DNA of 30,624 bases from Folioceros fuciformis (taxonomy: Eukaryota). The stretch lies in assembly GCA_049999805.1 (NCBI GenBank), contig JBNGIO010006139.1:113034-143657 (forward strand), read 5' to 3'. Every line of letters starts with the position of its first letter. Position 1 is the first letter of the stretch. The translations under genes were made by a program, and so were the position numbers. Below, piece after piece: positions 1-27,829 of this stretch. The notes below the pieces were generated by a model. The model ran no database searches. It saw only the letters and a list, made by a program, of their open reading frames with translations, and was not told where the DNA came from.

Positions 1-1749
1 GTCGAACACAGTCTGGGCATCCTGTACACTGCCACACTTCCCATACATGTTGACCAAACTGCAGCCTACAACCACGTCGACCTGGATTCCTTGTTCTCCA
101 ATCTGTGCATGAAGCCGCTTCCCCATCTCCAAAGCAGGAGTCCCGACAGCTGCACATGCTTGCAGGAGACATACAAACGTTACAGAATCCGGTGCAGCAA
201 TACCTTCGTCTTGCATAGAAAAGTACACATGAAGGGCTTCCTCACCCATACCCTGCTGCGCATACCCTGCTATCATGGCCGTCCATGTCACTACATTTCT
301 TCCTCTGAGTTCATCAAACACGCTCTGAGCATCCTTTAAGCTGCCGCACTTTGAGTACATGTTTATAAGATTGTTGCCTACATTCATCTCAGCTTGAAGT
401 CCACGTTCCTCGATCTCATGGTGAAGCTCCTTTCCCTTCTCCAATGCTGCCGTACCGACACTTGCACAGGCCTGCAAGAGACACACAAATGTCACGGTAT
501 CGGGTGCAGCAATGCCTTCTAGCTGCATGATACCGTACAGTTCAAGTGCCTTGCCACCCATACCCTGCTGGCAATATCCTGCTATCAAAGCCGTCCATGC
601 CACCACAGGCTTCTGAGCAAGTTCGTCAAAAACACTATGCGCATCCTCTAGACTGCCACACTTTGCATACATGTTCACGAGGCTACACCCCACAACCACA
701 TCAGCCTGAAGTCCTCGTTCCCTAATCTGTACGTGAAGTTGTTTCCCTTTCTCCAAACCTTTGGTACCAACACTTGCGCAAGCCTGCAGAAGGCACACAA
801 ATGTCACAGAGTTGGCTGCCACAACACCTTCTTCCAACATAGCACCGTAGAAACGAAAGGCCTCCTGGTCCATGCCCTGCTGTGAGTATCCGCAAATCAT
901 TGCAGTCCAAGTCACCACATCTTTCCGACGTAGTCCATCAAACACTCTCTGAGCATCTCCCAAGCTGCCGCACTTCGCGTACATATCCACCAGGCCATTG
1001 CAAAGATAAGACCCCGGCTCAACTCCACTGGCCAACAAATCAGCATGCACCTGCTGCCCACTCTTCAAGTCCGCCGCCCTTGCACAAGCCTGCAGGGCTG
1101 CCACAAAAACATGCTCATCTGGCTTCACACTCGACCCCCGCATCTGATGGTACAGGTCTATAGCCTGCTTAGCTTCTCCATGTTTCACATAAGCAGAAAT
1201 CATAGCAGACCACGTGAACCGGTCTGGGTCAGTAACCACCGAGAAGACCACCGTGGCTTCTTCTAACCTGCCATGAGAAGCATACATTCTCAGGAGATGA
1301 TTGCACAAGAACGTGTCCGACTCGTACCCAAACTCCACCATCAGAGCATGAAGACGCCGACCCAGACTCAGATCCTTCTTTCCCACACATTTCCTCAGAA
1401 GACTATACAACACAGGTTTCACACCATGGCACCCTGTCTGTGCCAGAACTCCCAGAGCCTCAAAGGCCTCATTCAGCTGACCGTGCTCACATAATCTGCT
1501 TACAGTGTCAACCCTAACAGTCGTTTCCAATCCTTCAGAAGTAGGGGTAAGCCGACCCATCTGCATGACCAGGGCAGCCTGCTGGACCCGGCTGTAATGT
1601 TTCCCAAGCGCAAACAAGCCTCCGTCATGTTGCCTGCTACCGCAACTAGGTGGTTGCTCCTGAAAATAAAGTCCCCATAGTAGCTCTGCTCTGCCAGAGC
1701 TGTGATTAGCCACACACTTTCCTGTCCAACCGAAGGTCATGGCACTCAT
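1..1749 (-). CDS. PLS-class pentatricopeptide repeat protein (organellar RNA-editing factor type), 3' end outside the window
   Basis: Manually translated minus frame has no stop from ATG 1749 (alternative ATGs 1740, 1566, 1560) to base 1. It contains repeated P-L-S motifs (VVTWTAMI.GY.QQG, SVTFVCLLQACA, SLVNMYAKCGS). Missing from the ORF track because it runs off the edge. Confidence 0.93.
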   Translation of the reverse strand, partial: MSAMTFGWTGKCVANHSSGRAELLWGLYFQEQPPSCGSRQHDGGLFALGKHYSRVQQAALVMQMGRLTPTSEGLETTVRVDTVSRLCEHGQLNEAFEALGVLAQTGCHGVKPVLYSLLRKCVGKKDLSLGRRLHALMVEFGYESDTFLCNHLLRMYASHGRLEEATVVFSVVTDPDRFTWSAMISAYVKHGEAKQAIDLYHQMRGSSVKPDEHVFVAALQACARAADLKSGQQVHADLLASGVEPGSYLCNGLVDMYAKCGSLGDAQRVFDGLRRKDVVTWTAMICGYSQQGMDQEAFRFYGAMLEEGVVAANSVTFVCLLQACASVGTKGLEKGKQLHVQIRERGLQADVVVGCSLVNMYAKCGSLEDAHSVFDELAQKPVVAWTALIAGYCQQGMGGKALELYGIMQLEGIAAPDTVTFVCLLQACASVGTAALEKGKELHHEIEERGLQAEMNVGNNLINMYSKCGSLKDAQSVFDELRGRNVVTWTAMIAGYAQQGMGEEALHVYFSMQDEGIAAPDSVTFVCLLQACAAVGTPALEMGKRLHAQIGEQGIQVDVVVGCSLVNMYGKCGSVQDAQTVFD

Positions 1750-2232
1750 GTTGCATCTCGCGGCTCTAGTTTGGAAACGTCTGGAAAATCACATTCAGGT
1801 GGGCGGACGCTGTTCTTGCAACATCGCCAATCCGTTGAGTCCGCCAAACTTGTTCCCCAAACAGATACTGTGGCCCTGGGGACCCCAGACTCCCAAAAGC
1901 CAAGACCCGGGTGGGCACACAGCGCATCCCACCAATGCATCTGGCTACGGGACGCAATGTGCGAGTTCATGGGATTCTTCGACCCATTCGGGAAGGATCA
2001 TGTGAGGGCTGCCAACCCCCGCCTCAGGAGAGCGGGGGGCGGAAGAGTGATGTGGGCGTTTACGGACATTCCGATTTCAAAAACGTATCTCTTATTTCCA
2101 GACAGGAATTAAAGTAAGAAGAAACATCGATCTAGGGCCAATGATACGCCATGGTCTAACTAAGATTACAATGCCTGGGCTGCATACCGCCTGGTCGTGC
2201 TCTGTGACCACTGTACTCCTCCTTCATGGAAA

Positions 2233-4726
2233 CTACTCTATGTAAGGAGTCATGCGGGCGAGGCGGATGTCACGTAACAGCAGCCTTGTGAAAAAAGCCG
2301 TCTCCTCTGGATTAGCCACCCACCTGTGGAAAAGAAAGTAATTAGATAGACATATCGAATGGAGGTAGTGACCTACCTTTCGCCGCAAGTGAAAACTACT
2401 TACAGGATGGAGCATTTGGAACGTGTAGCAGAATCGTTGCCACTGAGCGTGAATCGGTCGCCGACATGCAATGTTTCATAAGGCTTCTTCCCGAGGTATT
2501 GCATTAGCGCACCGAGACCCAGGGACTTGTTGCCTGCCGAACCACAATCAACCACTCAGAAGAAGCAGGGAAATTGAGGAGGTATCGTACCTGAGACGAC
2601 TGTGGCTGCGTAATGCATGCCCAAAACGCAGTGCACCTGGTGGGCGTAGTGAACTTACCCACATCGACGAAAACATCTGCATCAAAAATTCCAAAGCCGG
2701 ACAGGGTTACTAGAGCACGACAAGGACGCGGCCCAGAATTGCAGCATTTACGGTTTCACAGCTCACCATTGCCCCCGTTGAAAGCACAAAAGGTCAACTT
2801 GGAATCCACGAGCTGGACTTGCACAGTCAAGGCTAACTCCTCAAGCACCTGTTGCAAGTAGCACAGGCAAACAAACGAAAGCCCAGAGGGTCAGACACAG
2901 GAACTGCTGCTACAACTCTAAATCGCAGAGAGACAATCTAGCATTTCTAAACTTTGATCGGAGTCCACCTCGTAGATCGTGGGTTCCTTCGGGACCGCTC
3001 CTACAGCCTTTGGTTTTCTAACGATCTCTACGGGTAACCGCAAACGAGCCGCAGCCGATCTCAGTGCACCTTCCGCATCATCCAGCAATGCCTGCACATC
3101 TTCCTCCACCCACGCCAGCATGTCTTTGGATTTCCACAGTTCATCCGGTACGAATTCAAGCCGGTAGTCGTCGTTTACTCGCAGAAGATAGTTACATTCT
3201 CCACCCATGACATGAAAAAGGCTTGTTATGCTGGGAGATAAGTCGAGATCTTTGAAAGCAGCCAGCAAACCAGCCAGACGGTCTTCAAACCGTGCTGCAT
3301 CTCCTGGGTACCCTGCCAGCAAAGTCAGATTCAAATTAGGAACCTTTTGAGGGGGGCAGAGGTCGTCTTAGCCCCTGCCGACCAATGAGAGTATCGTTTT
3401 CAAGCTATCGTATACAGAAGAGAGACTGCGGCCATCAGTGTAACTATGACAAGAAATCCGTCATGAGGAAGGGCTCCTGAAGACCAGAAGCCTCTTCTCC
3501 GGATACACATTGTGTCATCATCTGGCTCCTAGTCTACGCACCTACGATTTCCTCGCGAGGCACACACCAATTCAGAAACGGATGAAAAAAAAATCACCGG
3601 CAGCAGTCACAATTGCCACGTGAGACCCGTGCTGCATAAGCTTGATAATGTGGCCGATCATTTTACTGTCCCTTCGGATATGGTGACCATCTGCATACAC
3701 AGTACCATCTGCATCAAAAGTAATCAAAGACAACTTCTCTGCAATGGCATGGACCTGCATCCAAAGGATTACAGGTTAAAAACAATCTGCATTGACTCAA
3801 AGACCACCTACCCAGACTAAACAGCCAAGCGTCTCGCTCACCTGTGCTATATTGAGCACATGCCGGATCTCTGCAAAATTAGGCGGCACGAACTTCCGCC
3901 GTGACAGCGAGGCGAATTCATCGTACTCCTGCAATGCTTGCACCAAGGGCAGGGTAGTGTAGAATCGGCCCACAGACGGCACAAGTCTGCCAAGAGTGCT
4001 TCGTTTCGGGTCCTCAAGGTGCTCCCGTATCCACCGTTCCATCTTCTCCATCACCTTCAACATATTTCCAAGCCACACGCTCCCGTCAAGATCCAGAAAA
4101 GCGTTACCGACCACGTACTAAAATTCCGCACACTATCAACATACCTGGAACGGAGAATGAGTGGTGTGCATTGAGATGAGGAACTCGATAAGGCCATCCT
4201 GCTCCTTCAGCCGCCCCTTCCGCCGCAACACATGTGCGTCAGCCACGCTGCTGGCTCTCGAGAGGTGTGCATCTTCCAAAGCCTCCTTACTCAGGAGCAT
4301 GTTCCACCGCACCCGGGAGTACTGGTCGCTCCTGCTCCCGCTGGTACTCGCCATACCCGTGCCGTCGACATCAGTCTCTCGCTCGCTGTCCTCGTCAGTA
4401 CCGGGTCCACCTCTCTGAGCTGCATCCTCAACCCCGCTTTCGTGAGCCGTGTCCTCTTTCACTCCTCCGCCGCCCTTGCTCCTGCTTCTGCCCCGTTTGG
4501 GGGCAGCTCGTCCGGCTTCCAGCTCGCCATCCGGCCTCTGCGCCGCAACCTCCTGCTGAGCTGACAGGTTGCATCTCCAGGTGCGGCCCAGCCACCCGGG
4601 CCTGGCACCCGCGTCGCTCACGAGCTCCGCTCTGCAGATCACCGGGCTACAGGAGACTGTGGGCAGGGCTGCGGCGGGGAGAACCACAGGCGCTGCGTGA
4701 CAACAGGCCACCATTCTCAAATCCAT
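2233..4726 (-). CDS. ISN1: ISN1-family IMP-specific 5'-nucleotidase (HAD superfamily), 8 exons, with probable plastid transit peptide
   Basis: Phase-consistent GT-AG exons: 4726-4145, 4054-3842, 3754-3598, 3312-2969, 2848-2767, 2676-2659, 2533-2404, 2323-2233. Motifs: LITFDADGTVY (HAD I), IVTAAGYPG (II), VMGGECNYL, CAFNGGNDVFVDVGNKSLG, LHVGDRF..SGND, LWVANPEET, plus RRKFVPPNFAEIRHVLN, all typical of ISN1. Confidence 0.88.
3431..3526 (-). ncRNA. snoU40: Intronic box C/D snoRNA, U40/SNORD46/snR63 family (LSU rRNA helix 69 Am guide)
   Basis: Minus strand reads GCCA-g-ATGATGA (box C 3521-3515) ... CGGA (D') ... ATGACGG (C') ... GTCATAGTTAC-A-CTGA (box D 3438-3435)-TGGC, with a 4-bp terminal stem. 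The guide is complementary to conserved LSU GUAACUAUGAC. It lies in the sense orientation of ISN1 intron 3. Confidence 0.9.
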
Positions 4727-4911
4727 CGTCCAAACTCAGGGCTGATCGTCGTAGGCTGATAATGTAGCCTATGCCAGACTTCCCGCCGGGCTTTGCGTTC
4801 TTGATAGTAGGTTTCCATCATTAAACCTGCCAACAACCCTAAACCCCAGACAGATTCGCGAGGGACAAGAACCACCCTTACTATTGGACTCCCATTAGGG
4901 AGCTCATTCAA

Positions 4912-5017
4912 CTACTAAGCTAAGCGCCTACTTATGCGGAACCTCTTTCACACGGTAAGAAGTCCTACTAAGCTAAGCGCCTACTTATGCGGAACCTCTT
5001 TCACACGGTAAGAAGTC
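4912..5017. repeat. Perfect 53-bp tandem duplication
   Basis: ctactaagctaagcgcctacttatgcggaacctctttcacacggtaagaagtc occurs at 4912-4964 and 4965-5017. Confidence 0.95.
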
Positions 5018-5083
5018 CAGACGATATTAGTTTGTCCATCAGCGGGAGAGACGGGGACGCCGATAGAGCGAGGGTTTGCTACA

Positions 5084-5224
5084 ATGGGAAACCCGCTTCT
5101 CCGAAAGCTTGCGAGTGTGGCGGAGTGGGTAATCTTGCCTGGCGCGATGGTGGCGGCGTGCATTTCGGCCAGCGGGTATCCACCGGAGCAGGATCGAGCC
5201 TCCAAGAAGTCGCAAAAACGCTAG
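5084..5224 (+). CDS. Candidate 46-aa single-pass membrane microprotein (MGNPLLRKLASVAEWVILPGAMVAACISASGYPPEQDRASKKSQKR)
   Basis: ATG in strong plant context (ACAATGG), preceded by a GA-rich leader and AGGGTTT. The peptide has an amphipathic basic N-terminus, a hydrophobic core and a basic tail. It is below the ORF-track length cutoff. Confidence 0.5.
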   Translation: MGNPLLRKLASVAEWVILPGAMVAACISASGYPPEQDRASKKSQKR

Positions 5225-6242
5225 TGCGTCTTCTAATGGAGCGGGCTAGGGTTCGGCCCGGATTTCTGCCGTTCCTCTCGGCGCGGATTCTTTGTCGAGG
5301 GAGAACCGGCACAGGTCATCTCGAAACCTATTGGCCCCAGATTCAATCGACTGAGCAGTGAATGAGTCTTGCACATGTTTAGCACGGCATCTGACCTTAC
5401 GAGGGTTGCGCGGCTCCAAACAGGATGAGATCTTTTGGAGTAGTGCACACTTTGAAGATGGAATTGAATCCTAAGGCTTTCTGGACAGTTTGAGGAAGGA
5501 ATTAGATCGTATGGATTCTTGTATGGATTAAGCACGGCTCTGCTGCTCGAAGACTGCTCTTTCTTTCTACAGGAATCCTGGTTTCCAGAAACAACTTCAA
5601 ACGGGACTGTGGTTTGCAGATGAATTCAATCAACCCTGGTTGCTCCCAACCATCGGGGTTACACCTGACTTCAATGACACCGGTGTCCACCACTTCCGAC
5701 TCTATTCCGCTGAAAGGATGTTGAACAGATGCCTTGTAACGACGGAACACTGTAGGTCTGGGCCAGGCAATTTTTGACCTCTGCACTCAGAAATGTGCCC
5801 GGCAGACTACTGGTCAGTTTGTCTGCATCTCTCCTTTGCACGTTAGCCCTCGTGAGCGGGAACGATAAAATTTGTTTTTCGTAGCGAATGTAAAAAATGC
5901 TTCTTCCTAACACCGGCAACTATGAAGTTCATCTCTCAAGAGAGACTTACTTGATGCAGATATAATATTGTCTTTTTCAATGTACATTGCGCTATCTTTT
6001 CTCTGTATAAGGCCAAAAATAAACCCAAAGCCCTAACTGGACATGAACATGTCGTACATGCACGTGTTTAGCTTGGGTTGGAACTCCGACGCGCAGTAGC
6101 CTTGGTTCGTTGCCGCCAGAAGTTGGAAGTCACAAGTAGCAACGTTCCTTTCGACCTGCGAGCAGCAGGAACCAGACCGGAATGATCTCAGTAGGCGCCG
6201 TTCAGGCTCTTGAGACCAGCTTCGCAAGATGCACAGGCGGCT

Positions 6243-6250
6243 TAGGGTTT
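6243..6250 (+). promoter_or_regulatory. Telo-box (TAGGGTTT) upstream of the snoRNA array
   Basis: Exact TAGGGTTT at 6243-6250 and TTTAGGG near 6414-6420. Telo-boxes are common in plant snoRNA and ribosome-biogenesis promoters. Confidence 0.35.
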
Positions 6251-6518
6251 TGCATGGAATCTGGATCAATCAGAAGATCACCGAACGTAGATGCGCGCCA
6301 TTTTTCGAGCATCAGGCAAATGGTGTTAGAGTGGCGTTGGGAATGTGGTGACGGTCTTTCGTATTGAGGAGAGTTTGATCTTCAAAGGGTCCATTATGCT
6401 TGCCAAGTCTAGGTTTAGGGAAGTGCGCCTGCGGCATGTAGATCTCGCGTTCACTGTCTACACGGAGCTGTCTTTGCTGTCGTGCCTCATTTGTGGTAGG
6501 CTGTCTCATGCTTGACAA

Positions 6519-6616
6519 GGAACCAGTTGATGACATCCTGTGGATCGGAGAAGTCTCTTGTGGTTTTCAGGAGCATTTTCTTAGGATGGCTTTGCCATAG
6601 TCACACCGATACTTCC
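6519..6616 (+). pseudogene. Degenerate U40/SNORD46 snoRNA copy 1
   Basis: GGAACCA-g-TTGATGA box C and the conserved interior are present. The guide is mutated to GCCATAGTCAC and box D to CCGA. Confidence 0.7.
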
Positions 6617-6667
6617 AGCATTTCCATTCCTTAAGTCACACATCTTGTCTTTAGAGTCTTGCCCGAG

Positions 6668-6767
6668 GGAACCAACTGATGATATCCAGTGAATCGGAGA
6701 AGGCTCATCTGGTTTTCAGGAGCACTTCCTTGTGATGGATCTATGTCATAGTTACACTGATGGTTCC
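6668..6767 (+). ncRNA. snoU40: Box C/D snoRNA U40/SNORD46 family, copy 2 (apparently intact)
   Basis: 7-bp terminal stem GGAACCA/TGGTTCC, box C CTGATGA (6676-6682), D' CGGA, C' GTGATGG, guide GTCATAGTTAC, box D CTGA (6757-6760). Confidence 0.88.
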
Positions 6768-6815
6768 AACCTTTCTATTGCGGAAATCATGCATCTTGTC
6801 GCTTGGAGTTGAGAA

Positions 6816-6915
6816 GGGATGAAGTGAACAAAGTTCACGAATCGGAGAAGGCTCGTCTGGTTTTCAGCAGCACTTCTTTATGATGGATGTACGTCATAGT
6901 TACACTGATGGTCCC
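6816..6915 (+). ncRNA. U40/SNORD46 snoRNA copy 3, box C degenerate
   Basis: Intact guide GTCATAGTTAC plus CTGA (6905-6908) and GGGA/TCCC ends, but the box C position reads GTGAACA. Confidence 0.6.
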
Positions 6916-7544
6916 AGCCTTTTCATCTGAAAAGCTAAGCAAACGTCTTTTGGAGTCCTCCGAAAGGGCAGACAATGGCGGTTCTGCGTTGAGGGAGACC
7001 ATCGACCTTAGGGCAGAACCAAGTGGTTGTCTTGTGTGGTTCTGTGCTAACTCAGAGTTCCGTTGTCAGCTAACAGTAAGCATCCGGATTGCATGCGCAT
7101 GGCGTCTGGTTCATCAGCGCGCAACATTTTCTGGACCTTCCCGTATTCCAAAGTGCAGCGGCTGATCACAGAGTTCGACGTGCTCCGGTCATCAGTGGAA
7201 CAGACCAAAAAATTCCTTGGTGGAAAATGGTTGTTATTTTCTGAACAGTGCGGACGTGGTAGAAGCATGGAACAAGCCCCTTGCACTTGAGGTGGCGAAT
7301 GGTCCGAAGCTTCTGGGCGAGTGGTTCAAAGGCGCAAGCTTAAATAACAGGCAACATATCTCGCCTGTCTTTCAGCCACAGATCGGGCACCACTTGGCCT
7401 CACCGTGTTCTTCTGTGACCCCCTCCTCTGTTGCGTGCCTTTTCTGCTGCTTGCCCTGCGCGGTCGAAACCTCGGTTTGCGGTCTCTGTGTGTCCTGAGC
7501 TAATTGTGTTGTGCAGCTGCGGAGCGGAAGCTGTCGTTGTTTCA

Positions 7545-8954
7545 ATGGCGTCTCAGGTGCATATGGCGGCTCGCTCGGCTGGGGCCTTGGTCAGTGCTCC
7601 CCGAGATGGCGTGTACCGTGCCTTCTCCGGCTTAAGGTCGGTGGTGGGTTTGAGCCGGCGGGCTTTCCAGCCGGCGGTGCTTCTGCGAGCACATGAAGCT
7701 GGGGAGTCCCGGGTGCGCATGCAGGCCGTGGCCTCCGAGACTTCTCGCTTCGCCGGTGTGCCCCAGGCCCCCCCGGATCCTATCCTGGGTGTGTCGGAGG
7801 CCTTCAAGGCAGACACCCACCCTGCCAAGCTCAACCTGGGCGTGGGAGCTTACAGGACGGAGGAGCTGCAGCCGTACGTGCTCAAGGTGGTGCGGGATGC
7901 GGAGAGGAAGATGGTGGAGAGCGGGCTGTTCAAGGAGTACCTCCCGATCGAGGGCTTGGCTGCCTTTAACAAGGCGACGGCTGAGTTGCTGCTGGGAGCT
8001 GACAATGCTGCTATCAAGGAGAACCGGGTGGCGACAGTGCAGGGGCTGTCCGGAACCGGATCCCTGCGTCTCGGTGCCGCTTTTATCCAGCGTTACCTGG
8101 GGGGAGCCAAGGTGCTCATCTCGTCGCCCACCTGGGGGAACCACAAGAACATCTTCACGGATGCTGGGGTTCCGTGGTCCGAGTACCGTTACTACGACCC
8201 GAAGACGGTGGGACTGGACTTCCGGGGGATGATTGACGACATCGCTGCGGCTCCTGCTGGATCCGTCATTCTGTTGCACGGCTGTGCCCACAATCCCACC
8301 GGCATCGACCCGACACCGGAGCAGTGGGAGAAGATTGCCGATCTGATCGAAGAGAAGGGGCATCTTCCCTTCTTCGATGTAGCGTATCAGGGGTTTGCTA
8401 GCGGGAGCTTGGACGAGGACGCGAACTCTGTGAGGTTGTTTGTGGAGAGGGGGATTGAGCTCCTGGTGGCGCAGTCTTACAGCAAGAATCTGGGGCTGTA
8501 CGCTGAGAGGATCGGGGCCATCAACGCTGTAGTGTCGTCCCCTGATGTGGCTGTGAAGGTGAAGAGCCAGCTGAAGCGGCTTGCCCGACCTATGTACTCT
8601 AACCCCCCTGTGCACGGAGCGCAGATCGTGGCAAGCATTGTCGGCGACCCTGCTCTGTTTGATGAGTGGAGAGGTGAGATGGAGGTGATGGCAGGGAGGA
8701 TCAAGACCGTGCGCCAGAAGCTGTATGACTACTTGTCTGAGAAGGACAAGAGTGGGAAGGACTGGTCGTTCGTGCTGAAGCAGATCGGCATGTTCTCCTT
8801 CACCGGCCTGAATAAGGCTCAGAGTGATAACATGACTGACAAGTGGCACGTCTACATGACCAAGGATGGCCGAATTTCCCTGGCAGGTCTGAACTTGGCC
8901 AAGTGCGAGTACTTGGCCGACGCCATCATCGACTCCTACCATAACGTGAAGTGA
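7545..8954 (+). CDS. ASP5: Plastid aspartate aminotransferase (469 aa, intronless CDS)
   Basis: Motifs APPDPILG, KLNLGVGAYRTEE, LHGCAHNPTG, FFDVAYQGFASG, PLP lysine SYSKNLGLY and DGRISLAG. Transit-peptide-like N-terminus from ATG 7545. A 5'UTR intron acceptor (ctaat...gtgcag) ends at 7516. Confidence 0.95.
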   Translation: MASQVHMAARSAGALVSAPRDGVYRAFSGLRSVVGLSRRAFQPAVLLRAHEAGESRVRMQAVASETSRFAGVPQAPPDPILGVSEAFKADTHPAKLNLGVGAYRTEELQPYVLKVVRDAERKMVESGLFKEYLPIEGLAAFNKATAELLLGADNAAIKENRVATVQGLSGTGSLRLGAAFIQRYLGGAKVLISSPTWGNHKNIFTDAGVPWSEYRYYDPKTVGLDFRGMIDDIAAAPAGSVILLHGCAHNPTGIDPTPEQWEKIADLIEEKGHLPFFDVAYQGFASGSLDEDANSVRLFVERGIELLVAQSYSKNLGLYAERIGAINAVVSSPDVAVKVKSQLKRLARPMYSNPPVHGAQIVASIVGDPALFDEWRGEMEVMAGRIKTVRQKLYDYLSEKDKSGKDWSFVLKQIGMFSFTGLNKAQSDNMTDKWHVYMTKDGRISLAGLNLAKCEYLADAIIDSYHNVK

Positions 8955-9241
8955 GCATGCAAGCCTTGGGCTTCCGTGAACAGTCGGGGCTGGAGGAGGA
9001 GAGTTTTGTGCACCTGGATTCCAGCTCTGTGCGGATTATCTTTCTTGGTAGTCTTATCTTTAATTTTTGTTAGCGGTATAGCCCTCTCCAAGGTCTTCCA
9101 TACGTGATATGCTGTTTGCTAGTGCACCTTTTGCTTTTGCGTCTGGCTCTCAGGTTCGTAGGAACCTCATTCAGTGACGCAGATACTTGGGAAGTGTTCC
9201 TCCCTGCTGCATCGCGCAAACGTGAGTTGTCACTGTGGAGT

Positions 9242-9341
9242 NNNNNNNNNNNNNNNNNNNNNNNNNNNNNNNNNNNNNNNNNNNNNNNNNNNNNNNNNNN
9301 NNNNNNNNNNNNNNNNNNNNNNNNNNNNNNNNNNNNNNNNN
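9242..9341. other. Assembly gap (100 N)
   Basis: Run of N bases. Confidence 1.
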
Positions 9342-9790
9342 TTGTGGAGGACGGCATTCCTGGACATTTTGCGAACATCGCTGGTTTTAGAAATAAAGAG
9401 GTCCTAAACAGCTTGCTTCCGGCCTTTCTCGACCCCAAGACTTACCCTTCTGCTTGACGAAAGCATGCACTGAAGGCGAACGACAACAATGAATGAAAGC
9501 ACTTCACTGTACCTCAACCGCAAGCATCGAATAAGAACGTTCGCACTCGCAAGTATGGGATAAGAACATCCTTCGGACTGAAGGGAAACAGCAGGTGGAG
9601 TGACGGGAGGTGGAGGTAGAACGTGAACGTCAGAGTCACCGAATAAGATCATCGGAAGCTGAAGGTTCACACTTCCAGGAGATGCCACGTAGAAATGCGT
9701 ACTTGGCAAGCTCCGAGCGATCAAACCTAGCTATGTTCTTGGCAAGGCTTGTCTTTTCTCCTGTTGGATTCTGAACATGAGGGAAATCCG

Positions 9791-12700
9791 ATGGCTGGAC
9801 GCCGGGCTCTAAAGGCCTTGCCTTGCCGCGGGAAGTCTTTGTGCGCATCGATGGGTTGTTTGCGGAGTAAAATGTTGGTGGTAGCTGGAGTGCTGGGTGT
9901 GTTAGTCGTGCTCGCCGGATGGGCTCCTGTGGCAGGCGGGTCATCCAATTACCTGATAGGTGTGGGAAGCTTCGACGTAACGGGCCCTGCTGCCGATGTC
10001 AACATGATGGGCTACGCGAATCCCACGCAAAATGCAGCTGGGATTCACTTCAGGCTGCGGTCGCGGGCTTTCATCGTTGCCGAGCCTGGCACCAATTCCT
10101 CGGATGGAAAGAGGGTTGTCTTTGTGAATGTCGATGCTTGTATGGGTGCCCAAGTTGTAGCTCTGCATGTCTTTGAACGGCTCAAGGCGAGGTGATTGCT
10201 CCCCTGCCTTGTTTAGTATTGTAGGCTACGGTACTGTGCTGGGTGGGTGTTGATGGACTGGATGTCGACTGATTGGCAGGTATGGCGATATGTACTCGGA
10301 GAAAAATGTGGCCATCAGTGGGATCCACACTCATTCAGGGCCCGGCGGGTATCTTCAGTATGTTCTCTACATCGTGACGTCTCTGGGCTTTGTCCGCCAG
10401 TCATTTGATGCCCTTGTGGATGGCATTGAGAACAGTATTGTACAAGCCCATGAAAATCTGAGGCCGGGATCCTTGTTCATCAACAAGGGTGAGTCCACTG
10501 CTTGTTCGTGTACATGTTGGCTATCCATCAGGAGGAGGAGGAGGTGCGGATGAGCATCGAGCTAATGGCTTTCTTTGGCTGGCAGCGTTGGCTTTGACTG
10601 TTGGACTTGTTCGATTGCTTTTCTTGTGAGAGTTGAGCTACCCATCTGTCCCTCATGTCATGTGGAACCTCAGTGGTGTTCTTGTATGAGGTCTTCTCTG
10701 TACTCAAAGAAGCTTGTTGTCTGCTAGAAAGTCACATTCCTTACTGAACGAAGGCTGGGGTTGGCAATAGATTGGTCATGAGCAAAGGGTGACGTACATG
10801 ATGACCAACCCCCTGGGCTGCGTTGCAGGGGAGCTGCTTGAGGCGAACATCAACCGTAGCCCGAGTGCGTATTTAAATAACCCAGCCGAGGAACGAGCGA
10901 AGTACGATCATGATGTTGACAAGGAGATGACCCTGGTGAAGTTTGTCGATGAGGAATGGGGTGAAGTTGGGGCCTTGAGCTGGTTTCCAGTTCATTGTAC
11001 TTCGATGAACAGGACGAATGTACTCATCAGTGGCGACAACAAAGGGGCTGCCTCACGGTTCATGGAAGACTGGTTCAAGCAGAAGACGGCTAGTCATCCA
11101 TTTGCAGAAGAAGCCACAATCGACAAGAGTTCTCAGAATGGCTTTCTGTTTGATGTTGCAAGAACGCGTTCCCGGCGGGTTTCGAAGGCTACACCAAGAT
11201 GGTTTCACTTACATGGTACGTCACACTGACTGATTCAGAGCAAAATATTTCAGGCGGTCAACAAGAAGGTGGGAATCTTGAACAAGCTACATGTCCATGA
11301 CGTTACAGAAAGCAAGAGGCCGATGGAGATGGCACTAAGCATGCCAAGCCCCGGTGGTAAACCCAGCACGAAGCTGTCCAACTTGCTACATCGAGTGAGG
11401 AGCAGCTACAAGGATTCCTTGAGGCCACCTTTTGTGGCAGCGTTTGCTCAGAGTAATGTTGGGGATACAAGTCCCAACGTGTTGGGGGCTTTCTGTGATG
11501 ATACCGGTCTACCTTGTGATTTCAATACAAGTACCTGCAGTGGACAGAACGAGCTGTGCAACGGACGTGGTCCAGGGTATCTTTTGCAAAGCCTCATCTC
11601 CTCTTGACGGAAAGTCGTGTTTTTTGTATCCTTATTGCTGCCTATGCTTAGGTCTGTCAGCCAACAAAATGCTCGTCATGGATTGTCCTGGTTGGCCTTA
11701 TTTGCCTTGCCAGCTATCCAGGGGATCATTTTCTGAGCACCAAAATCATCGGTGAGCGGCAAGCTCAACGAGCATTGCAGCTGTTCAAGGACGCGAAAGA
11801 GCAGCTACTTGGAGGTGTTGACTATAGGCAGACGTACTTGGACATGACTGGAGTTCAAGTGACACTGCCTTCAGGAGAGGTAGTAAGAACGTGCCCCGCT
11901 GCTGTGGGGTTTAGTTTTGCTGCTGGCACAACAGATGGTCCTGGAGCATTCGATTTCAAGCAGGGTGATGCACAGGTACCTAATCTCCCTTATCATAAGT
12001 CTGTCAACCACAAAGTTCTGGATGTTGAGTATTGCTGGTCTCCTGTCGTGGACTTGCCGTTGATTGCTGGGCAATGGCCACATGCAGGGAAATCCCTTTT
12101 GGAAGCTTGTGGGTGGAGCATTGAAAACCCCAACAAGTAAGCAAGTGGAGTGCCAGAAGCCCAAACCAATCCTGATCGATACAGGAGAAATGACAACCCC
12201 TTACGATTGGGCGGTATGGCCGGCCCTTAACAACCATTCCACTGCCCTTCGAATCTCGATTTTGCTTAAATGAACTGCGGTTTAGCAATAGTGGCTTGTG
12301 GGCTGCAGACAGTCTGAATGAAGTGTTTGATGCCCTGACAGTCTCTGGTTGTCGCGTTGTGTGCCAGCCATCGGTTCTTCCCATTCAGATACTCAGAGTT
12401 GGACAACTGATTATTCTATCCGTGCCAGGAGGTGAGTTACAGCACACAGTTCCCCAATCCATGAAGCTCACTTTGTTCAGCTGTACAAATGGTGCAGATG
12501 ATGTGCAGAGTTTACAACCATGGCTGGGCGTCGTTTGCGAGATGCTGTGAAGAATGTATTGATCCAGAACTCAGGAGCAGAATTCAAAAATGCACATGTT
12601 GTGATTGCGGGGCTTACCAATGGCTATTCTCAGTATGTCACCACATTTGAAGAATACCAAATTCAGCGATACGAGGTGAGGACTCGAAGGCTCCTTCCGC

Positions 12701-13315
12701 TTTGTTGCAGAAAAAGTTTACTGGAGAACGAATTTGGCTGAAACCAGTGTTACTGGCAAACAGGGAGCATCAACATTGTTTGGTCCTCATACTTTGAGTG
12801 CCTACATACAAGAGTTCGAGAAGCTGGCCTCAGCTTTGGTGAAGGACACCACTGTTCCCAACGGGCCTGCACCTCCTGATTTGCTCAGTAAGCAGATATC
12901 ACTTCTTCCGGGTGTCCTGACCGATGCCACCCCCAGTGGAGTGAACTTCGGGGACGTGAAGCAGGACGTCGTCAGAGGTTCAACCTTCTTTCCTGGGGAC
13001 ACAGTGGAAGTAGTTTTCTACACCGGATGTCCCCGAAATGATCTCTATACAGAGGGCACGTATGCTTTGGTACAGTCATTTGATGCCACCAAGGGTTTGT
13101 GGTATGATATGTATGATGACGATGACTGGTGTGTCCAGTTCCTCTGGAATAGGCCGTCACAGCTGAGTCCTCAGAGCTTTGCCACCATCAGGTGGGAGAT
13201 TCCAGACACAGCTCTTCCAGGTGTCTACCGAATCCGACATTTTGGAGCTTACAAGTACATATGGACATCGGTGAAGCATTTCAGTGGCACATCCAGCTCG
13301 TTCGTAGTCTCTTGA
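9791..13315 (+). CDS. NCER: Neutral ceramidase, about 9 exons, N-terminal signal/anchor
   Basis: Exons 9791-10191, 10280-10488, 10829-~11180, ~11240/11254-11576, 11714-11975, 12088-12213, 12368-12431, 12509-12675, 12764-13315 (the exon 3/4 junction is uncertain). Motifs GSFDVTGPAADVNMMGYA, HTHSGPGG, VHCTSM, catalytic GDTSPN, GTTDGPG, PGEFTTMAGRR, YEGASTLFGP. Confidence 0.93.
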
Positions 13316-13793
13316 ATGCTTGCGCCTGGCAGCTAATTGCACAGCAGGCCCTGACGTCATCTTTTGTTTTGGGCTTCTAGGCTGGGCTTATTTCATGTAA
13401 ATTGTAAGTTTATCTCTTGGTTCTCTGTAACATGGAAACCTTTGTGGAAGGCTAGATTGCTAGCAACTGCATTTTAGCAAACCTCTTCTGTGAATGGAAT
13501 GCTACGGATCCGAGTGTGTAGAAATGTCGCAATTCTTTCAGTGGACTTCAATCCTGGCTCTCCCACGCTGCATTCCCTTTCTCTTACCATCAAAGGAGAA
13601 GAAGAAAGAGTAGACCCATTCCTTTCCTCATACCATCAAAGGAGATTCTTGAAGAAAGAGTGGATACGAACTGGATAGAGCAGGGAAGAAAACGAATTTG
13701 CACGGCAGTCCAAGTCCATGAGGAGGGTGAGGTGAGGAGCACGTTCGCCCTAGGCCACGGCCGCCGTAGCATTACCTTGGCTACTTTGAGTCC

Positions 13794-16328
13794 ATGATGA
13801 GCAAGGCCCTGCTTGGAATTGCTACCGTGTTGCAACCAGGCCTGCCCGTTCAAGGGAGTGTCGGGCATGGCAAAGACTGTGTAGGAAGGATCTTTTCTAG
13901 GATCTCTCGTGGAAACAGTTCGTCCTTGGGGATGTACTCTGGTGGCATAGTAGATCACTCTCTCAGGGCAAACGGCTTATACAGGCCAGATTGGTTGACT
14001 TTGCAGCTAGCTGCGGTGGGTGCGGTTGTCTCTGGACGGGAAATGGGTGTGATGGATGAAACCGTGGGCAAACTGTGTAAGTTGGGGCACCTGGATGAGG
14101 CCGTTGAGGCTTTGGAAGTTTTGGTGCTGACAAAAGATCGTGATTTTGAAACTCTCATGTACACTTTGATCAAGCTATGTGTGGCTAAGAGGAATCTGGT
14201 TGTGGGTCGGCGAGTACACGCTCTTTCCGTGAAAATGGGGTATGAATCGGCCACGTTCTTGTGCAACCACATCCTGCGGATGTATGCATCGCATGCCAGG
14301 TTGCAGGAAGCGATGGATGTGTTCAGCCTGGTTGCTAATCCAGATGCATTTACATGGTCTGCCATAATTTCTGCGCATGCCCAAGGTGGAGAAGTTCGGC
14401 TCGCCATAGAGCTATATCATCGGATGCGTAGGACAAGTGTGAATCCCGATAGCCATGTGTTTGTAGCAGCCCTGCAGGCTTGTGCGAGAGGAAAGGACTT
14501 GAAGCACGGGCAGCAGGTGCATGCTGATGTTTTGGCCAGTGGGTTTGAGGCGGGTTTGTCTGTGTGTAATGCGTTGGTGGACATGTATGCAAAGTGCGGC
14601 TCGCTGGAAGAAGCACAGAGAGTGTTTGATGGAGTCAATCAGAAGGATGTTGTGACGTGGACTGCTCTCATGTCTGGATATTCCCAGCAATGTATGGGTC
14701 AAGAAGCCCTTCATCTCTACAGTGCCATGCAAGAGGAAGGCATCGCTGAACCCAATTCTGTGACTTTTGTGTGCCTCCTGCAGGCATGTGCGAGCCTGGG
14801 CGTCCCGGCTTTGGAGAAGGGTAGGCAACTTCATGCTCAGATTGGGGAACAAGGACTGCACACTGATGTGCTTGTAGGTTGCAGCCTGGTAAATATGTAT
14901 GCAAAATGTGGCAGTCTACAGGACGCTCGGCTAGTGTTTGAAAAGCTTCCCCATAAAGACGTGGTGACATGGACTGCTCTGATTGCAGGATATTCTCAAC
15001 AGGGCATGGGTCAGGAGGCCATTCAACTTCACAATGCAATGCAGCGAGAAGGCAACGGTGCGCCGGATTCTGTGACATTTGTGTGCCTGTTGCAAGCATG
15101 TGCGAGTGTGGGTATCCTAGCTTTAGGGAAGGGAAAGGAACTTCACATAGAGATAAACCAACGAGGACTTCAAGCTGATGTTAGTGTAGGTAACAATTTG
15201 GTAAACATGTATGCAAAGTGTGGCAGCCTGCAGGATGCTCAGGCCGTGTTTGACAGCATGGGGCAGAAAAATGCGGTTACCTGGAATGCCATGATAGCAG
15301 GATACTCCCAGCAGGGCATGGCGTTGGAAGCTCTTCGTCTGTACAGTGCCATGCGGCAGGAAGGTGCCGCCGCCCCTGACTCGGTGACATTCTTGTGCCT
15401 CCTGGATGCATGTGCGAGTGTTGCTGCCATACACGCAGGAAGGCAGCTTCACGCTGAGATTGTGGAACAAGGACTTCACACAGATGCGTTCGTAGCCATC
15501 AGTGTGATGAAAATGTATGCCAGGTCTGGTAGCATGGCTGATGCACAGCAGGTGTTCGATGCACTGCTCGAACGAGACATTGTTGCCTGGAGTGCGCTGA
15601 TCGCAGGATACACTTGTCAAGCAGACAGTAAAGCGGCCTTCGACTTGTTCCACAGAATGAGAGAAGACGGCGTACAGCCAGACGGCGTCACGTTCACTAG
15701 TCTTCTCACAGCATGCAGTCATGCTGGTCTAGTACACCAGGGTCAGGAGTACTTCGAGTCTATGCACAGAGACTATGGCATCCGCCCCACCGTGGAACAC
15801 TACTCCTGCATGGTGGATCTCCTGGGTCGAGCAGGCCAACTCGAGGATGCTCTAGCGCTGGTGCTGACTATGCCAGTGCAGGCTGACATTGCCATTTGGC
15901 ACACTCTGTTGGGTGCCTGCCAAAAGTGGTGCAACGTGGAGGTGGGAAGCCATGCCTTTCGTGCAGCAGTGAGGTTAGACGAAAAGGATGCAACACCCTT
16001 TGTGATCATGTCCAACATATATTCCGATGCTGGAATGTGGGAAGAGGCTCAGGAGTTGCAGGCTATGAGAACAGGAATTTGGGCATGGAAGGAGGCTGGG
16101 CAGAGCTGGTGGACAGACACAGACGGGCTTGTTCACATTTTCGTGGCTGACGATAGAACACATCCAGAAAGTGGAGCTTTGTATCAGAGGATCCATCAGC
16201 TTCTTTCCCAAATAAAGGACGGAGGGGACACGTGGATTGCTAACGTCCGACATATAGGACGCAGATCAAATGAACGCTGTAAGATGAGTCGTCGTACATC
16301 CAATGCAGCTAAGTTTGTGGCCACCTAA
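13794..16328 (+). CDS. PLS-class PPR protein with E1/E2 and truncated WW-type (E+) C-terminus
   Basis: 844-aa intronless ORF with a P-L-S array, P2-L2-S2 (HYSCMVDLLGRAG) and E1/E2, followed by KEAGQSWWTDTDGLVHIFVADDRTHP. No in-frame HxE/CxxC or terminal DYW. Confidence 0.95.
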   Translation: MMSKALLGIATVLQPGLPVQGSVGHGKDCVGRIFSRISRGNSSSLGMYSGGIVDHSLRANGLYRPDWLTLQLAAVGAVVSGREMGVMDETVGKLCKLGHLDEAVEALEVLVLTKDRDFETLMYTLIKLCVAKRNLVVGRRVHALSVKMGYESATFLCNHILRMYASHARLQEAMDVFSLVANPDAFTWSAIISAHAQGGEVRLAIELYHRMRRTSVNPDSHVFVAALQACARGKDLKHGQQVHADVLASGFEAGLSVCNALVDMYAKCGSLEEAQRVFDGVNQKDVVTWTALMSGYSQQCMGQEALHLYSAMQEEGIAEPNSVTFVCLLQACASLGVPALEKGRQLHAQIGEQGLHTDVLVGCSLVNMYAKCGSLQDARLVFEKLPHKDVVTWTALIAGYSQQGMGQEAIQLHNAMQREGNGAPDSVTFVCLLQACASVGILALGKGKELHIEINQRGLQADVSVGNNLVNMYAKCGSLQDAQAVFDSMGQKNAVTWNAMIAGYSQQGMALEALRLYSAMRQEGAAAPDSVTFLCLLDACASVAAIHAGRQLHAEIVEQGLHTDAFVAISVMKMYARSGSMADAQQVFDALLERDIVAWSALIAGYTCQADSKAAFDLFHRMREDGVQPDGVTFTSLLTACSHAGLVHQGQEYFESMHRDYGIRPTVEHYSCMVDLLGRAGQLEDALALVLTMPVQADIAIWHTLLGACQKWCNVEVGSHAFRAAVRLDEKDATPFVIMSNIYSDAGMWEEAQELQAMRTGIWAWKEAGQSWWTDTDGLVHIFVADDRTHPESGALYQRIHQLLSQIKDGGDTWIANVRHIGRRSNERCKMSRRTSNAAKFVAT

Positions 16329-17830: not shown

Positions 17831-18457
17831 CTACTCCGCGGCAGTGGCATCACCTCCCTGCTCTCCGCCCCGGTTCTTGAGCCAGATATCCAAAGTAAGG
17901 GCCGAAGCGAATGCGACCCAGGCCAGGTACGGCTTGAGCAGATTGGCAGCGACGTGGTTAGCAGGCTTGAAGGCAGCAATCGTAGCTGCCAACACCACAA
18001 CCAGAGCCACAATATCCACCACGGCCAGAGTGATATTCCGAACACCGAAGAAGAGAGCCGGCCAGAGCAGATTAAGCACGAGCTGCAGCGCGTAGAGAGA
18101 CAGCGGCTGGCTCTGCCGCTTCCACCCGCCTTCCACCCAAACCAGCCAGGACGCCAGCCCCATGAGCGGGTACAAGATGCTCCAGGCGGCCCCGAACAGC
18201 CAGCCCGGGGGATTCCACCACGGCTTCTTGAGATCCGTGTACCACTGCGAGGTAGGACTGTTGATGACCGAGTCCACTATCCCAGCCACCAGGGGGATGG
18301 CAACCGCTACGGCCAGGGTTCGGAGACCTCCTTTCGTAGCAGCTGCGGTCCCCGCCGCCCTAGCCCGGGCCTCCTTCACATCGCCACGCTCCTTCACTTG
18401 CTCCTCTCCGGCTGCAACATCCTGCCGCACCCGCTGCACCAGGCCCTCAGCGTTCAT
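17831..18457 (-). CDS. TSPO: TspO/MBR translocator protein (an in-frame upstream ATG at 18631 could add 58 aa)
   Basis: Signature segments WYTDLKKPWWNPPGWLFGAAWSILYPLMGLASWLVW, QLVLNLLWPALFFG and LLKPYLAWVAFA. A TATAAA at ~18658-18653 sits so close to ATG 18631 that the second ATG is favoured. Confidence 0.92.
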   Translation of the reverse strand: MNAEGLVQRVRQDVAAGEEQVKERGDVKEARARAAGTAAATKGGLRTLAVAVAIPLVAGIVDSVINSPTSQWYTDLKKPWWNPPGWLFGAAWSILYPLMGLASWLVWVEGGWKRQSQPLSLYALQLVLNLLWPALFFGVRNITLAVVDIVALVVVLAATIAAFKPANHVAANLLKPYLAWVAFASALTLDIWLKNRGGEQGGDATAAE

Positions 18458-19813
18458 CTTCGGAGTCCTGAGCTGTTCAAACTGCGAGCTCCGTCGGACG
18501 TGGACAGGAGGACGCCGATCCCGGTGCGTGCCAAGACAAGTGGACGATCTGCAGCTTCGCCTGGAGATGGCCAATGCAGGAATCGGATGCGAGACAGCGC
18601 TCAATTCCCTGGTCAAGATCGAGACTGCCATGTCGCTGCGATCGTGTCCAACATTTATACAGCGGATGCGTCGAAGAATTCACCATGGCGACAACAGCGA
18701 TCCCAGGTGTCGCGTCCAACTGGCGAGCTCCTCCTTGTCCCCCGCGTGGCAGCTCTGGGAACATGCGCTGGTGGAGACACATAGGCCAAACCTGGCCGCC
18801 ATCTATTGGCTAACTACCCTTCCAATGCGTCTATGAAACTAAACTAACTTCGACCTAACAGTTAACTAAACTAACTAGTTATCCTGGTGTGAATTATAGT
18901 CATCCGAAATTGATTTGACAATTCAGTTCAGGGGAACTAAATGATTCTCTGTGTGACTCTGATTCGCGTGCTTCTGTTGGACCCCCAGTTATCCCCTTGC
19001 TGTCCCGCCGTATGCGGCCCGACAGCTGGCATCTCTACGTACATTACGTTTGGGTACTAACTATGTAGTTGCGTATATGTGCAGTCCTCAAGACGGGTAT
19101 GCAAACTTGTTAATGTATTCTTGTGCTTCGGCTGTGGCCACAGACTTGTTGGACAGCCTTTGGCTTTTGCCGTCCCGGGAATGCGCCTCCTCCGTCAGCT
19201 AGGGAATCTGCGGTTTCGTGGAGACACACCGGAATTGGGGATTGTCTCGGTCTGAGGTACCTAAGCGTGGCTTCGGTGAGTGCGTGTGTGATTCAGGTTA
19301 CTTGCTGCAGATCCCTTCATGGATTGCTTGTGGATGTGGAGTCATGTGGTTTGAAGCTGCACAGCGGACGACTGGAGCAATCGGGGTGTTGTCGAAAGCT
19401 GTAATGTATTCTTTTGCTTAGGTTTGTGAAAGAAGGATTGGTGGATGATCCTGACGTTCAGGAGGAGAGTGGAGTGGAGTTAGGATAGCAGAGCAAAAGC
19501 GGCTGATTTAGCTGAGGATGTGTGCGTTTCGGTGCTGTTTCATAGATGAGGTGCGACCGGATTCTGATGGTCGGAGTTCCCTTGCCATAGAAGGAATCTT
19601 CACATCGGGAGTCCAATTTTTTAGCGAGGGCCAAATCGCTCAGGTGAAGGAGGGAATCGGGAGGCCGGGTGCAGTCAGAGGGAACGCAGGTGTAGCGGCG
19701 GGGTCGGGAGAGTGTACTGGAGCAGCAGGCGAGGGGGGTGGTGAGGGATCGGGAACAAGTGTTTTGGGACTACCCCTGTGGCCAAGACGGGGAACTCACA
19801 GAATCGCGTCCTA

Positions 19814-27609: not shown

Positions 27610-27829
27610 GGAGCTCGGCGATGGCGGCAATGGCAGGATGGCAGCAAGCGGCAACAATGGCGCGCCTGCTGCCTCGCCCGGGACAAGGAGGCGAGAGCGA
27701 GGGCTTGCTCTTGCTCTCGGGCTGTCTCGCTCCGTTTCCCCCCTTCCCCTGCCCCCTCGTCCCCCCGTCCGCGCATTTGCTCACTTCCCTCCTTGCTCCT
27801 CTCCCTCGCCCTTCAGACACGAGTCCCTG

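Follow-up and report, generated by a model that had tools for sequence, protein, structure and literature searches.

The DNA studied here is a stretch of 30,624 nucleotides (nt) of Folioceros fuciformis (assembly GCA_049999805.1, contig JBNGIO010006139.1, positions 113,034 to 143,657 of the forward strand), which we call the window and number from its first letter. It carries four related box C/D small nucleolar RNA (snoRNA) units, c0 to c3, that resemble the U46/SNORD46-snR63 guides of the large-subunit (LSU) ribosomal RNA (rRNA). One of them lies in an intron of ISN1, the gene of an inosine monophosphate (IMP)-specific 5'-nucleotidase, and the other three form an array on the opposite strand. 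The features in question are the following.

2227 to 4726, minus strand: ISN1 coding region, eight exons and 538 codons, host of c0
3313 to 3597, minus strand: ISN1 intron 3, 285 nt, contains c0 and brings in an in-frame stop if retained
3431 to 3526, minus strand: c0, predicted U46-family box C/D snoRNA, intact (box C 3521-3515, box D' 3501-3498, loop 3484-3480, box C' 3463-3458, guide 3450-3440, box D 3438-3435)
6519 to 6616, plus strand: c1, degenerate copy
6619 to 6667, plus strand: spacer 1, homologous to the spacers behind c2 and c3
6668 to 6767, plus strand: c2, intact and nearest to the consensus (box C 6677-6682, guide 6745-6755, box D 6757-6760, terminal stem of 7 bp)
6816 to 6915, plus strand: c3, guide and box D intact (6893-6908), box C altered

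A sequence-only reading of this DNA had announced four homologous units, and all four are present, c0 on the minus strand and c1 to c3 on the plus strand, where they are spaced by 149 and 148 nt. The copies are 67-82% identical to each other (c0 versus the array copies, 69-74%) and share a collinear set of boxes C, D' (CGGA), C' and D. The 16-nt word made of the guide and box D has three exact occurrences in the window and a fourth with three mismatches, against 0.14 expected by chance; none of 100 shuffles gave four matches. Both a regular box C and a regular box D are found in c0 and c2, while c1 lacks the latter (CCGA) and c3 the former (GTGAACA in place of RTGATGA). The terminal stem, 7 bp in c2, has 4-5 bp in c0 and is interrupted in c1 and c3. 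An internal D'/C' pair is present as well, with variant motifs: the CGGA of the window copies aligns with CAGA in the homologous loci L050 and L037, and C' reads TGATGG or TGACGG.

Homologs were collected by a metagenome pattern scan (box C, 45-75 nt, guide, box D) that returned at least 123 stretches from at least 122 loci. Among the matches listed there were 109 distinct units, 87 after de-duplication at 85%; 68 of the 87 were aligned into a sequence-only profile after 19 mostly short, AT-rich or repeated units had been removed by eye. This profile, which holds none of the window copies, placed exactly our four units at the top of the window (c2 36.7, c0 32.6, c3 24.2 and c1 9.2 bits), the next site scoring 4.5 bits. 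The match of c3 covers only model positions 35-100, i.e. the box C part is unmatched. The homology extends beyond the guide into the hairpin between boxes D' and C', as is seen in the homolog alignment, in covariation and in the independent profile.

The rRNA target was examined on locus L147, which is LSU_rRNA_eukarya (798 bits). The guides of c0, c2 and c3 form 11 of 11 Watson-Crick pairs with it (-15.1 kcal/mol), the second A being the fifth position counted from box D; c1 forms 9 of 11 pairs, with two guide mismatches (-6.7 kcal/mol). According to Table 2 of PMC2685112 (here as below, the papers are cited from excerpts), the corresponding site is Am2246 of Arabidopsis 25S rRNA, which equals human Am3739 (U46) and yeast Am2256 (snR63), and the excerpt of PMC8351944 mentions that in helix 69 of Arabidopsis one 2'-O-methyl site has been mapped. 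Many bacterial assemblies carry contigs with eukaryote-like LSU rRNA (L126-L157, of which L147 was confirmed), probably by contamination. Three viral loci that match the rRNA target were set aside as chance matches, there being no rRNA in them.

Two results count against the family assignment. The first is that a scan of the window gave no Rfam match at or above the gathering score, i.e. the curation threshold of the Rfam model; the second is that the profile involves some circularity for c0 and c2, its training units having been picked by box C, guide and box D, which does not apply to c1 and c3. In the E-value mode SNORD46 (RF00218) scored 20.9 and 19.4 bits on c2 and c3 and snR63 (RF01259) 16.3 bits on c0; snoR442 (RF01232), of the same clan CL00061, was also matched. 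These values of 16-21 bits are far under the gathering scores of 40 for SNORD46 and 50 for snR63, the latter being a model of a 255-nt RNA, whereas in length the window copies are akin to SNORD46. The last 16 letters of c0, c2 and c3, i.e. the guide with box D, are identical to both the SNORD46 and the snR63 consensus. The Rfam search that the sequence-only reading had named as a check came out negative at the gathering score and gave these sub-threshold matches in the E-value mode. The gathering miss is uninformative, since none of 20 homolog loci reached that score either; with the same models, 6 of 12 loci gave 17-22.5 bits. On the guide, the target and the homology of the body the copies almost certainly belong to the U46/SNORD46-snR63 guides for LSU helix 69; it is by these features, and not as Rfam-level members, that the putative family membership is assigned. 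The earlier proposal of this family, of an LSU target and of the second A as the D+5 site is borne out by the Rfam consensus, the pairing with L147 and the excerpt of PMC2685112; the name U40, also used there for the family, turned up nowhere in the analysis. Two further Rfam matches were rejected: SNORD69 at 3483-3533 is a match to the box C stem within c0, and SNORD46 at 15497-15543, in a PPR open reading frame (ORF), is without the guide word. No tRNA was found in the window, which leaves no tRNA-snoRNA dicistron.

The hairpin between D' and C' is real. In an alignment of eight rows (the four window copies and the four closest homologs), 7 of its 10 pairs show two-sided changes, and its covariation exceeds that of 500 of 500 shuffles and of every slid control, in a test that is biased favourably as the structure was derived from the same eight rows. 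Folding in excess of shuffled sequence is seen in c3 (z -3.06) and is absent from c1 (z -0.37), as well as from the whole intron 3 and the whole array (z -0.12 and 0.45). The apical loop reads GTTTT in the three array copies (6563-6567, 6712-6716, 6860-6864) and GTCTT in c0 (3484-3480); it holds GTT in 43 of the 87 homologs listed, versus 10-24 in 30 shuffles, and a similar motif (G-U-Y-Y-Y) is visible in the SNORD46 consensus and the yeast snR63 rows. Human U46 is listed with extra rRNA pairing in the excerpt of PMC3116282. The figure of that paper, in a garbled rendering, suggests that this pairing is downstream of the guide duplex, and a clear equivalent was not found here. As for the loop, its pairing with the segment directly upstream of the duplex takes ranks 38 and 53 out of 1189, after selection of the best among about 11 windows, which is not distinguishable from chance. 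The D' guides show no conservation among c0 to c3 and no consistent target.

The host of c0 is ISN1. All introns of its model are GT-AG, and Pfam PF06437 is found on exons 2, 3 and 4 (E 1.6e-16, 3.4e-12 and 2.3e-24). Intron 3 is long compared with the other ISN1 introns (285 versus 80-125 nt), and box D of c0 ends 122 nt upstream of its 3' splice site. The joints listed for run X1 show assembled contigs that lack introns 1, 2, 3, 4 and 7, the joint over intron 3 being 3311|3597 with CT..AC ends. Because the contigs skip the ISN1 introns, X1 represents RNA and c0 is truly intronic, as the sequence-only reading had it; c0 is part of an intron that is spliced out and is on the sense strand of ISN1, which is what defines an intron-encoded snoRNA. 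Runs X2 and X3 contributed no more than short exon fragments from relatives, which have no bearing on the snoRNAs.

The best named relatives of ISN1 are moss and liverwort proteins (77-80% identity), and the named land-plant relatives among the 120 listed are from bryophytes, lycophytes, ferns and gymnosperms. No named flowering-plant protein is among these 120 best relatives; flowering plants may lack ISN1 or have a divergent one. Exon 1 (4145-4726, minus strand) encodes a long N-terminal extension without a Pfam match, which by eye resembles a plastid transit peptide with an acidic stretch behind it.

It could be asked whether the choice of host has a function, i.e. whether snoRNP (small nucleolar ribonucleoprotein) assembly in intron 3 modulates splicing, with retention adding a stop, so that IMP turnover is coupled to ribosome production. 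Intron 3 is conspicuous in that it alone among the ISN1 introns keeps unexplained contig depth (residuals of 10.5 and 11.0 versus at most 0.2), of which about 3 in each case is contributed by the junction contig according to a hand estimate. Its retention would bring in the in-frame stop, and intronic snoRNAs that control the splicing of their hosts are reported from mammals in the excerpt of PMC10324135. Contig depth is weak evidence, though: it cannot rank the parts of a gene, short introns are more readily lost in assembly, and the cover could equally stem from the excised intron or a snoRNA precursor. Nor is conservation of this host shown, as a tblastn search with ISN1 in the 122 homolog loci listed (61 of at least 2 kb, 41 under 1 kb) gave no match at E<1. 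We consider a functional host very unlikely; most likely ISN1 serves as a passenger host, for which being expressed was the sole requirement.

For the array two further features have to be considered.

6243 to 6250, minus strand: telo-box and candidate promoter element of the array, at 276 nt upstream of c1; no other exact telo-box occurs in the window
7545 to 8954, plus strand: aspartate aminotransferase gene, intronless, downstream of the array (Pfam PF00155, E 1.5e-94)

A single X1 contig spans the array (6176-6909), and separate transcription of the trio c1 to c3 is likely. The telo-box belongs to an element class present in 37 of 40 non-intronic Arabidopsis snoRNA loci (PMC3022908, excerpt), and the array probably has its own promoter. 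The nearest site II element is at 5759. X1 cover is absent at 6008-6175, a hole that proves nothing and is not used as evidence. Three observations speak against an independent transcript. The aminotransferase contig starts at 6882, inside c3, and overlaps the array contig at 6882-6909. One telo-box is not above chance (0.56 expected), only its position being suggestive. Finally, X1 consists of the assembled contigs of one run, from which neither strand nor ends nor a mature RNA of about 95 nt can be read.

The same overlap would fit a trio that is itself hosted, in a long 5' leader or leader intron of the aminotransferase transcript, in which case both sets of copies would have hosts. A donor-like site at 6495, immediately ahead of c1, fits this proposal, and in L037 a U46 pair that follows telo-boxes and a donor site appears, by eye, to be intronic in a short-exon host. 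Yet no X1 joint spans the array, the aminotransferase contig runs from 6882 to 9200 without gaps, and the position of the telo-box is that of the non-intronic plant snoRNA loci (PMC3022908, excerpt); moreover, a contig over two genes does not prove one transcript. A hosted trio seems improbable to us, and an array with a promoter of its own the likelier case. The aminotransferase ORF as a whole (7419-8954, plus strand) has an N-terminal extension and is intronless amid neighbours with many short introns, which makes it a possible retrocopy.

The four copies are not equal. We counted private changes, i.e. changes at sites where the other three copies agree, in box C, guide and box D, which make up 22 of 97 columns; about 2.3 such changes are expected under neutrality. 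In c0 none of 12 private changes falls there (P=0.037) and in c2 none of 1, as compared with 3 of 10 in c1 and 2 of 10 in c3. The sequence-only reading had taken c3 as intact, having overlooked its damaged box C as well as the altered box D of c1. Judged by its box C, c3 is probably impaired, whereas c0 and c2 are in all likelihood the working copies. There would thus be one functional-looking copy per mode, with c1 and c3 apparently decaying.

It is conceivable that c1 has instead been retargeted (neofunctionalised) to another RNA and that c3 works via a variant box C, which would make four active copies. Box C is kept in c1, and c3 keeps the guide, box D and the well-folding hairpin; unusual C'/D' motifs can be active according to the excerpt of PMC5389607. 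Against this, c1 combines its aberrant box D with a broken terminal stem, and its best contiguous pairing is 9 including wobble, in unidentified flanks, among 15 eukaryote-like loci bearing ribosomal DNA (without full rRNA sets or small nuclear RNAs). The changes in c1 and c3 also strike the functional columns at the neutral rate. We give four active copies very little credence and keep to decay of c1 and c3. A rescue of c1 through C-to-U editing of its three T>C changes was likewise dismissed. Of all private changes T>C is the most frequent (11 of 33, 6 of them in c0), and the X1 contig over c1 shows no other letters, in an assembly that drops rare variants.

The spacers tell how the array arose. 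They are mutually homologous, with 0, 1 and 5 of 500 shuffles scoring equally high, and since all three are homologous the array was made by tandem duplication of a unit of about 149 nt. The flanks of c0 are different: the downstream flank does not resemble the array spacers beyond chance (its scores are reached by 184-267 of 500 shuffles) and the upstream flank is marginal (14 of 500). In a tree the trio separates from c0 at 89/93 and the four window copies from L050 and L037 at 85/87. The tree has about 100 columns and both supports are under the starred level, which tells against our view of the order of events. By these comparisons c0 would have diverged from the array ancestor prior to the amplification of the array.

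The sequence-only reading had proposed a local duplication with inversion. The proximity of 3 kb on opposite strands agrees with it and the flanks do not; with no homology between the flanks of c0 and those in the array, local inverted copying is derived from proximity. Alternatively, c0 may have come by RNA-mediated or long-range copying, or may be the older copy from which the array was derived, the proximity being incidental. The unrelated flanks and the limited identity of c0 to the array copies would agree with this, as would the unstable location of snoRNAs across eukaryotes described in the excerpt of PMC3511168. On the other hand, a chance landing less than 3 kb away in a plant genome would be unlikely, and the four window copies cluster, weakly, against L050 and L037. 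We regard such a non-local origin as rather unlikely and lean towards local inverted copying, which may have gone in either direction.

Taken together, the locus very probably presents four paralogs of the ancient U46/SNORD46-snR63 guide that have undergone ordinary mobility and birth-and-death. One duplication in the lineage would have parted c0 from the array ancestor (either of the body only or with a flank similarity since lost); the array would then have been amplified in tandem, after which c1 and c3 would have decayed while c0 and c2 remained constrained. As to function, boxes C and D would fold into a kink-turn that binds Snu13, Nop58, Nop56 and fibrillarin, the D guide would pair with helix 69 of the 25S pre-rRNA, and fibrillarin would 2'-O-methylate the A five pairs from box D (Am2246 in Arabidopsis), steps that follow the established box C/D mechanism. 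Host introns and separate precursors are both known routes of snoRNA processing, as the proteins named are known components of the snoRNP. On these lines c0 is probably freed from ISN1 intron 3 through splicing and exonucleolytic trimming, and c1 to c3 are probably cut out of a separate RNA polymerase II precursor that starts near 6176, with the telo-box at 6243. A bolder account would see a mode change under way: ISN1 intron 3 would have received a local inverted copy that is replacing the decaying array, and the snoRNA-bearing intron with its stop would tie IMP dephosphorylation, and with it purine supply, to ribosome production in this plant lineage. Separately, the G-U-U of the hairpin loop, present from yeast to plants, might make a second contact, so far undescribed, with rRNA or a protein. 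We hold this combination to be highly improbable and stay with birth-and-death.

Between ISN1 and the array there is a spliced transcript divergent from ISN1 (5084-6007, plus strand, intron 5315-5423) with a 46-codon ORF (5084-5221) ahead of its intron; this ORF has no Pfam match, and Atlas gave only leads below 0.9, to small single-membrane mitochondrial proteins (recognition 3117). A perfect 53-nt tandem duplication at 4912-5017, between ISN1 and this transcript, is either recent or an assembly artefact. A stretch of N is found near 9240-9340. The remaining neighbours were placed by eye from the ORFs, at 1-1800 (minus), 13770-16328 (plus), 9700-13315 (plus), 17831-18679 (minus), 19745-21313 (plus) and 25400-27800 (minus); in this order they presumably comprise two PPR genes, a neutral ceramidase, a TspO/MBR protein, a WD40 (LEC14B-like) protein and a cyclin-like gene with a low-complexity acidic region.

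Among the homolog loci listed, L037, L050 and L082 are the closest to the window. Their bodies are collinear with ours through D', hairpin and C' (c0 versus L050: 81% over 62 nt, E 7e-10) and they contain tandem U46 pairs; they differ in having neither ISN1 nearby nor an opposite-strand copy, and the pair of L037 is apparently intronic in a host without a Pfam match. More than one guide copy is present in 25 of the 122 loci, some of which are redundant, and 24 of these have the copies on one strand; the sole opposite-strand case is L023, with two mismatches. For a survey of hosts, 16 of the 122 loci were taken, and in each the nine longest ORFs flanking the snoRNA on its own strand were scanned (144 in all); 7 loci gave Pfam matches and 9 gave none. 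Domains on both sides of the snoRNA were those of cobalamin-dependent methionine synthase (L022, guide at 4001-4086), NLE/WD40 (L055) and ubiquitin C-terminal hydrolase (L061, L063 and L017, the last with a tandem trio in one gap at 4001-4468); on one side only we found Peptidase_M24 (L033) and LSM (L024).

The sequence-only reading had called a purine nucleotidase an unusual host, which does not hold in view of homologs whose host introns belong to genes of a methionine synthase and of ubiquitin hydrolases; a metabolic-enzyme host has a parallel within the family, because the methionine synthase locus carries a U46 guide. According to the excerpt of PMC13736004, human snoRNA hosts span 11 classes, and among expressed hosted snoRNAs ribosomal-protein hosts account for 10.1%, long non-coding RNA hosts for 33.9% and the others for 3.4-8.9% each. 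In the same excerpt, rRNA guides are concentrated in ribosome-related hosts and other-coding hosts are depleted 0.42-fold, which is at odds with so ordinary a view of ISN1; because of this depletion ISN1 is to be seen as a minority-type host, though not a unique one. Mobility among broadly expressed hosts is in fact the published expectation (PMC3511168, excerpt). The constrained-drift mobility of that paper and the passenger hosts of PMC13736004 describe a conserved guide that shifts hosts and modes, as it does here, in excerpts whose data are mostly from vertebrates.

In the literature searched, with most subscription papers outside its scope, ISN1 was not found as a snoRNA host, and no study of snoRNA organisation in a hornwort, moss or Marchantia turned up. 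The combination of an ISN1 host with a nearby inverted pair appears to be unreported, and within the loci tested it shows no conservation. In kind the arrangement is known, and the claimed novelty fails: the two modes, which had been thought surprising, are published for Arabidopsis, where U46-1 is intronic (At3g51800) and U46-2 lies in an intergenic cluster, both directed to Am2246 of 25S rRNA (PMC2685112, excerpt). The window copies share with this pair the 11-nt D guide, the target and the intronic/intergenic split (PMC2685112, excerpt). They differ in length and layout, the Arabidopsis genes being 79-83 nt long and on different chromosomes and ours about 96-100 nt, 3 kb apart and on opposite strands. 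The host of U46-1, which we take to be EBP1, is here replaced by ISN1; the window array, unlike Arabidopsis U46, is made of homologous copies, and the base just before box D is A in place of T.

What is known of the U46 family and of the genomic modes of snoRNAs is thus left unchanged, and the locus would matter more only if c0 controlled ISN1 splicing. It nevertheless adds a helix 69 guide, missed by the Rfam thresholds, from a non-flowering land plant, and its copy-specific bases make the expressed copies easy to tell apart. Set beside the Arabidopsis pair, it is a compact case of snoRNA birth, decay and host change within 3.5 kb.

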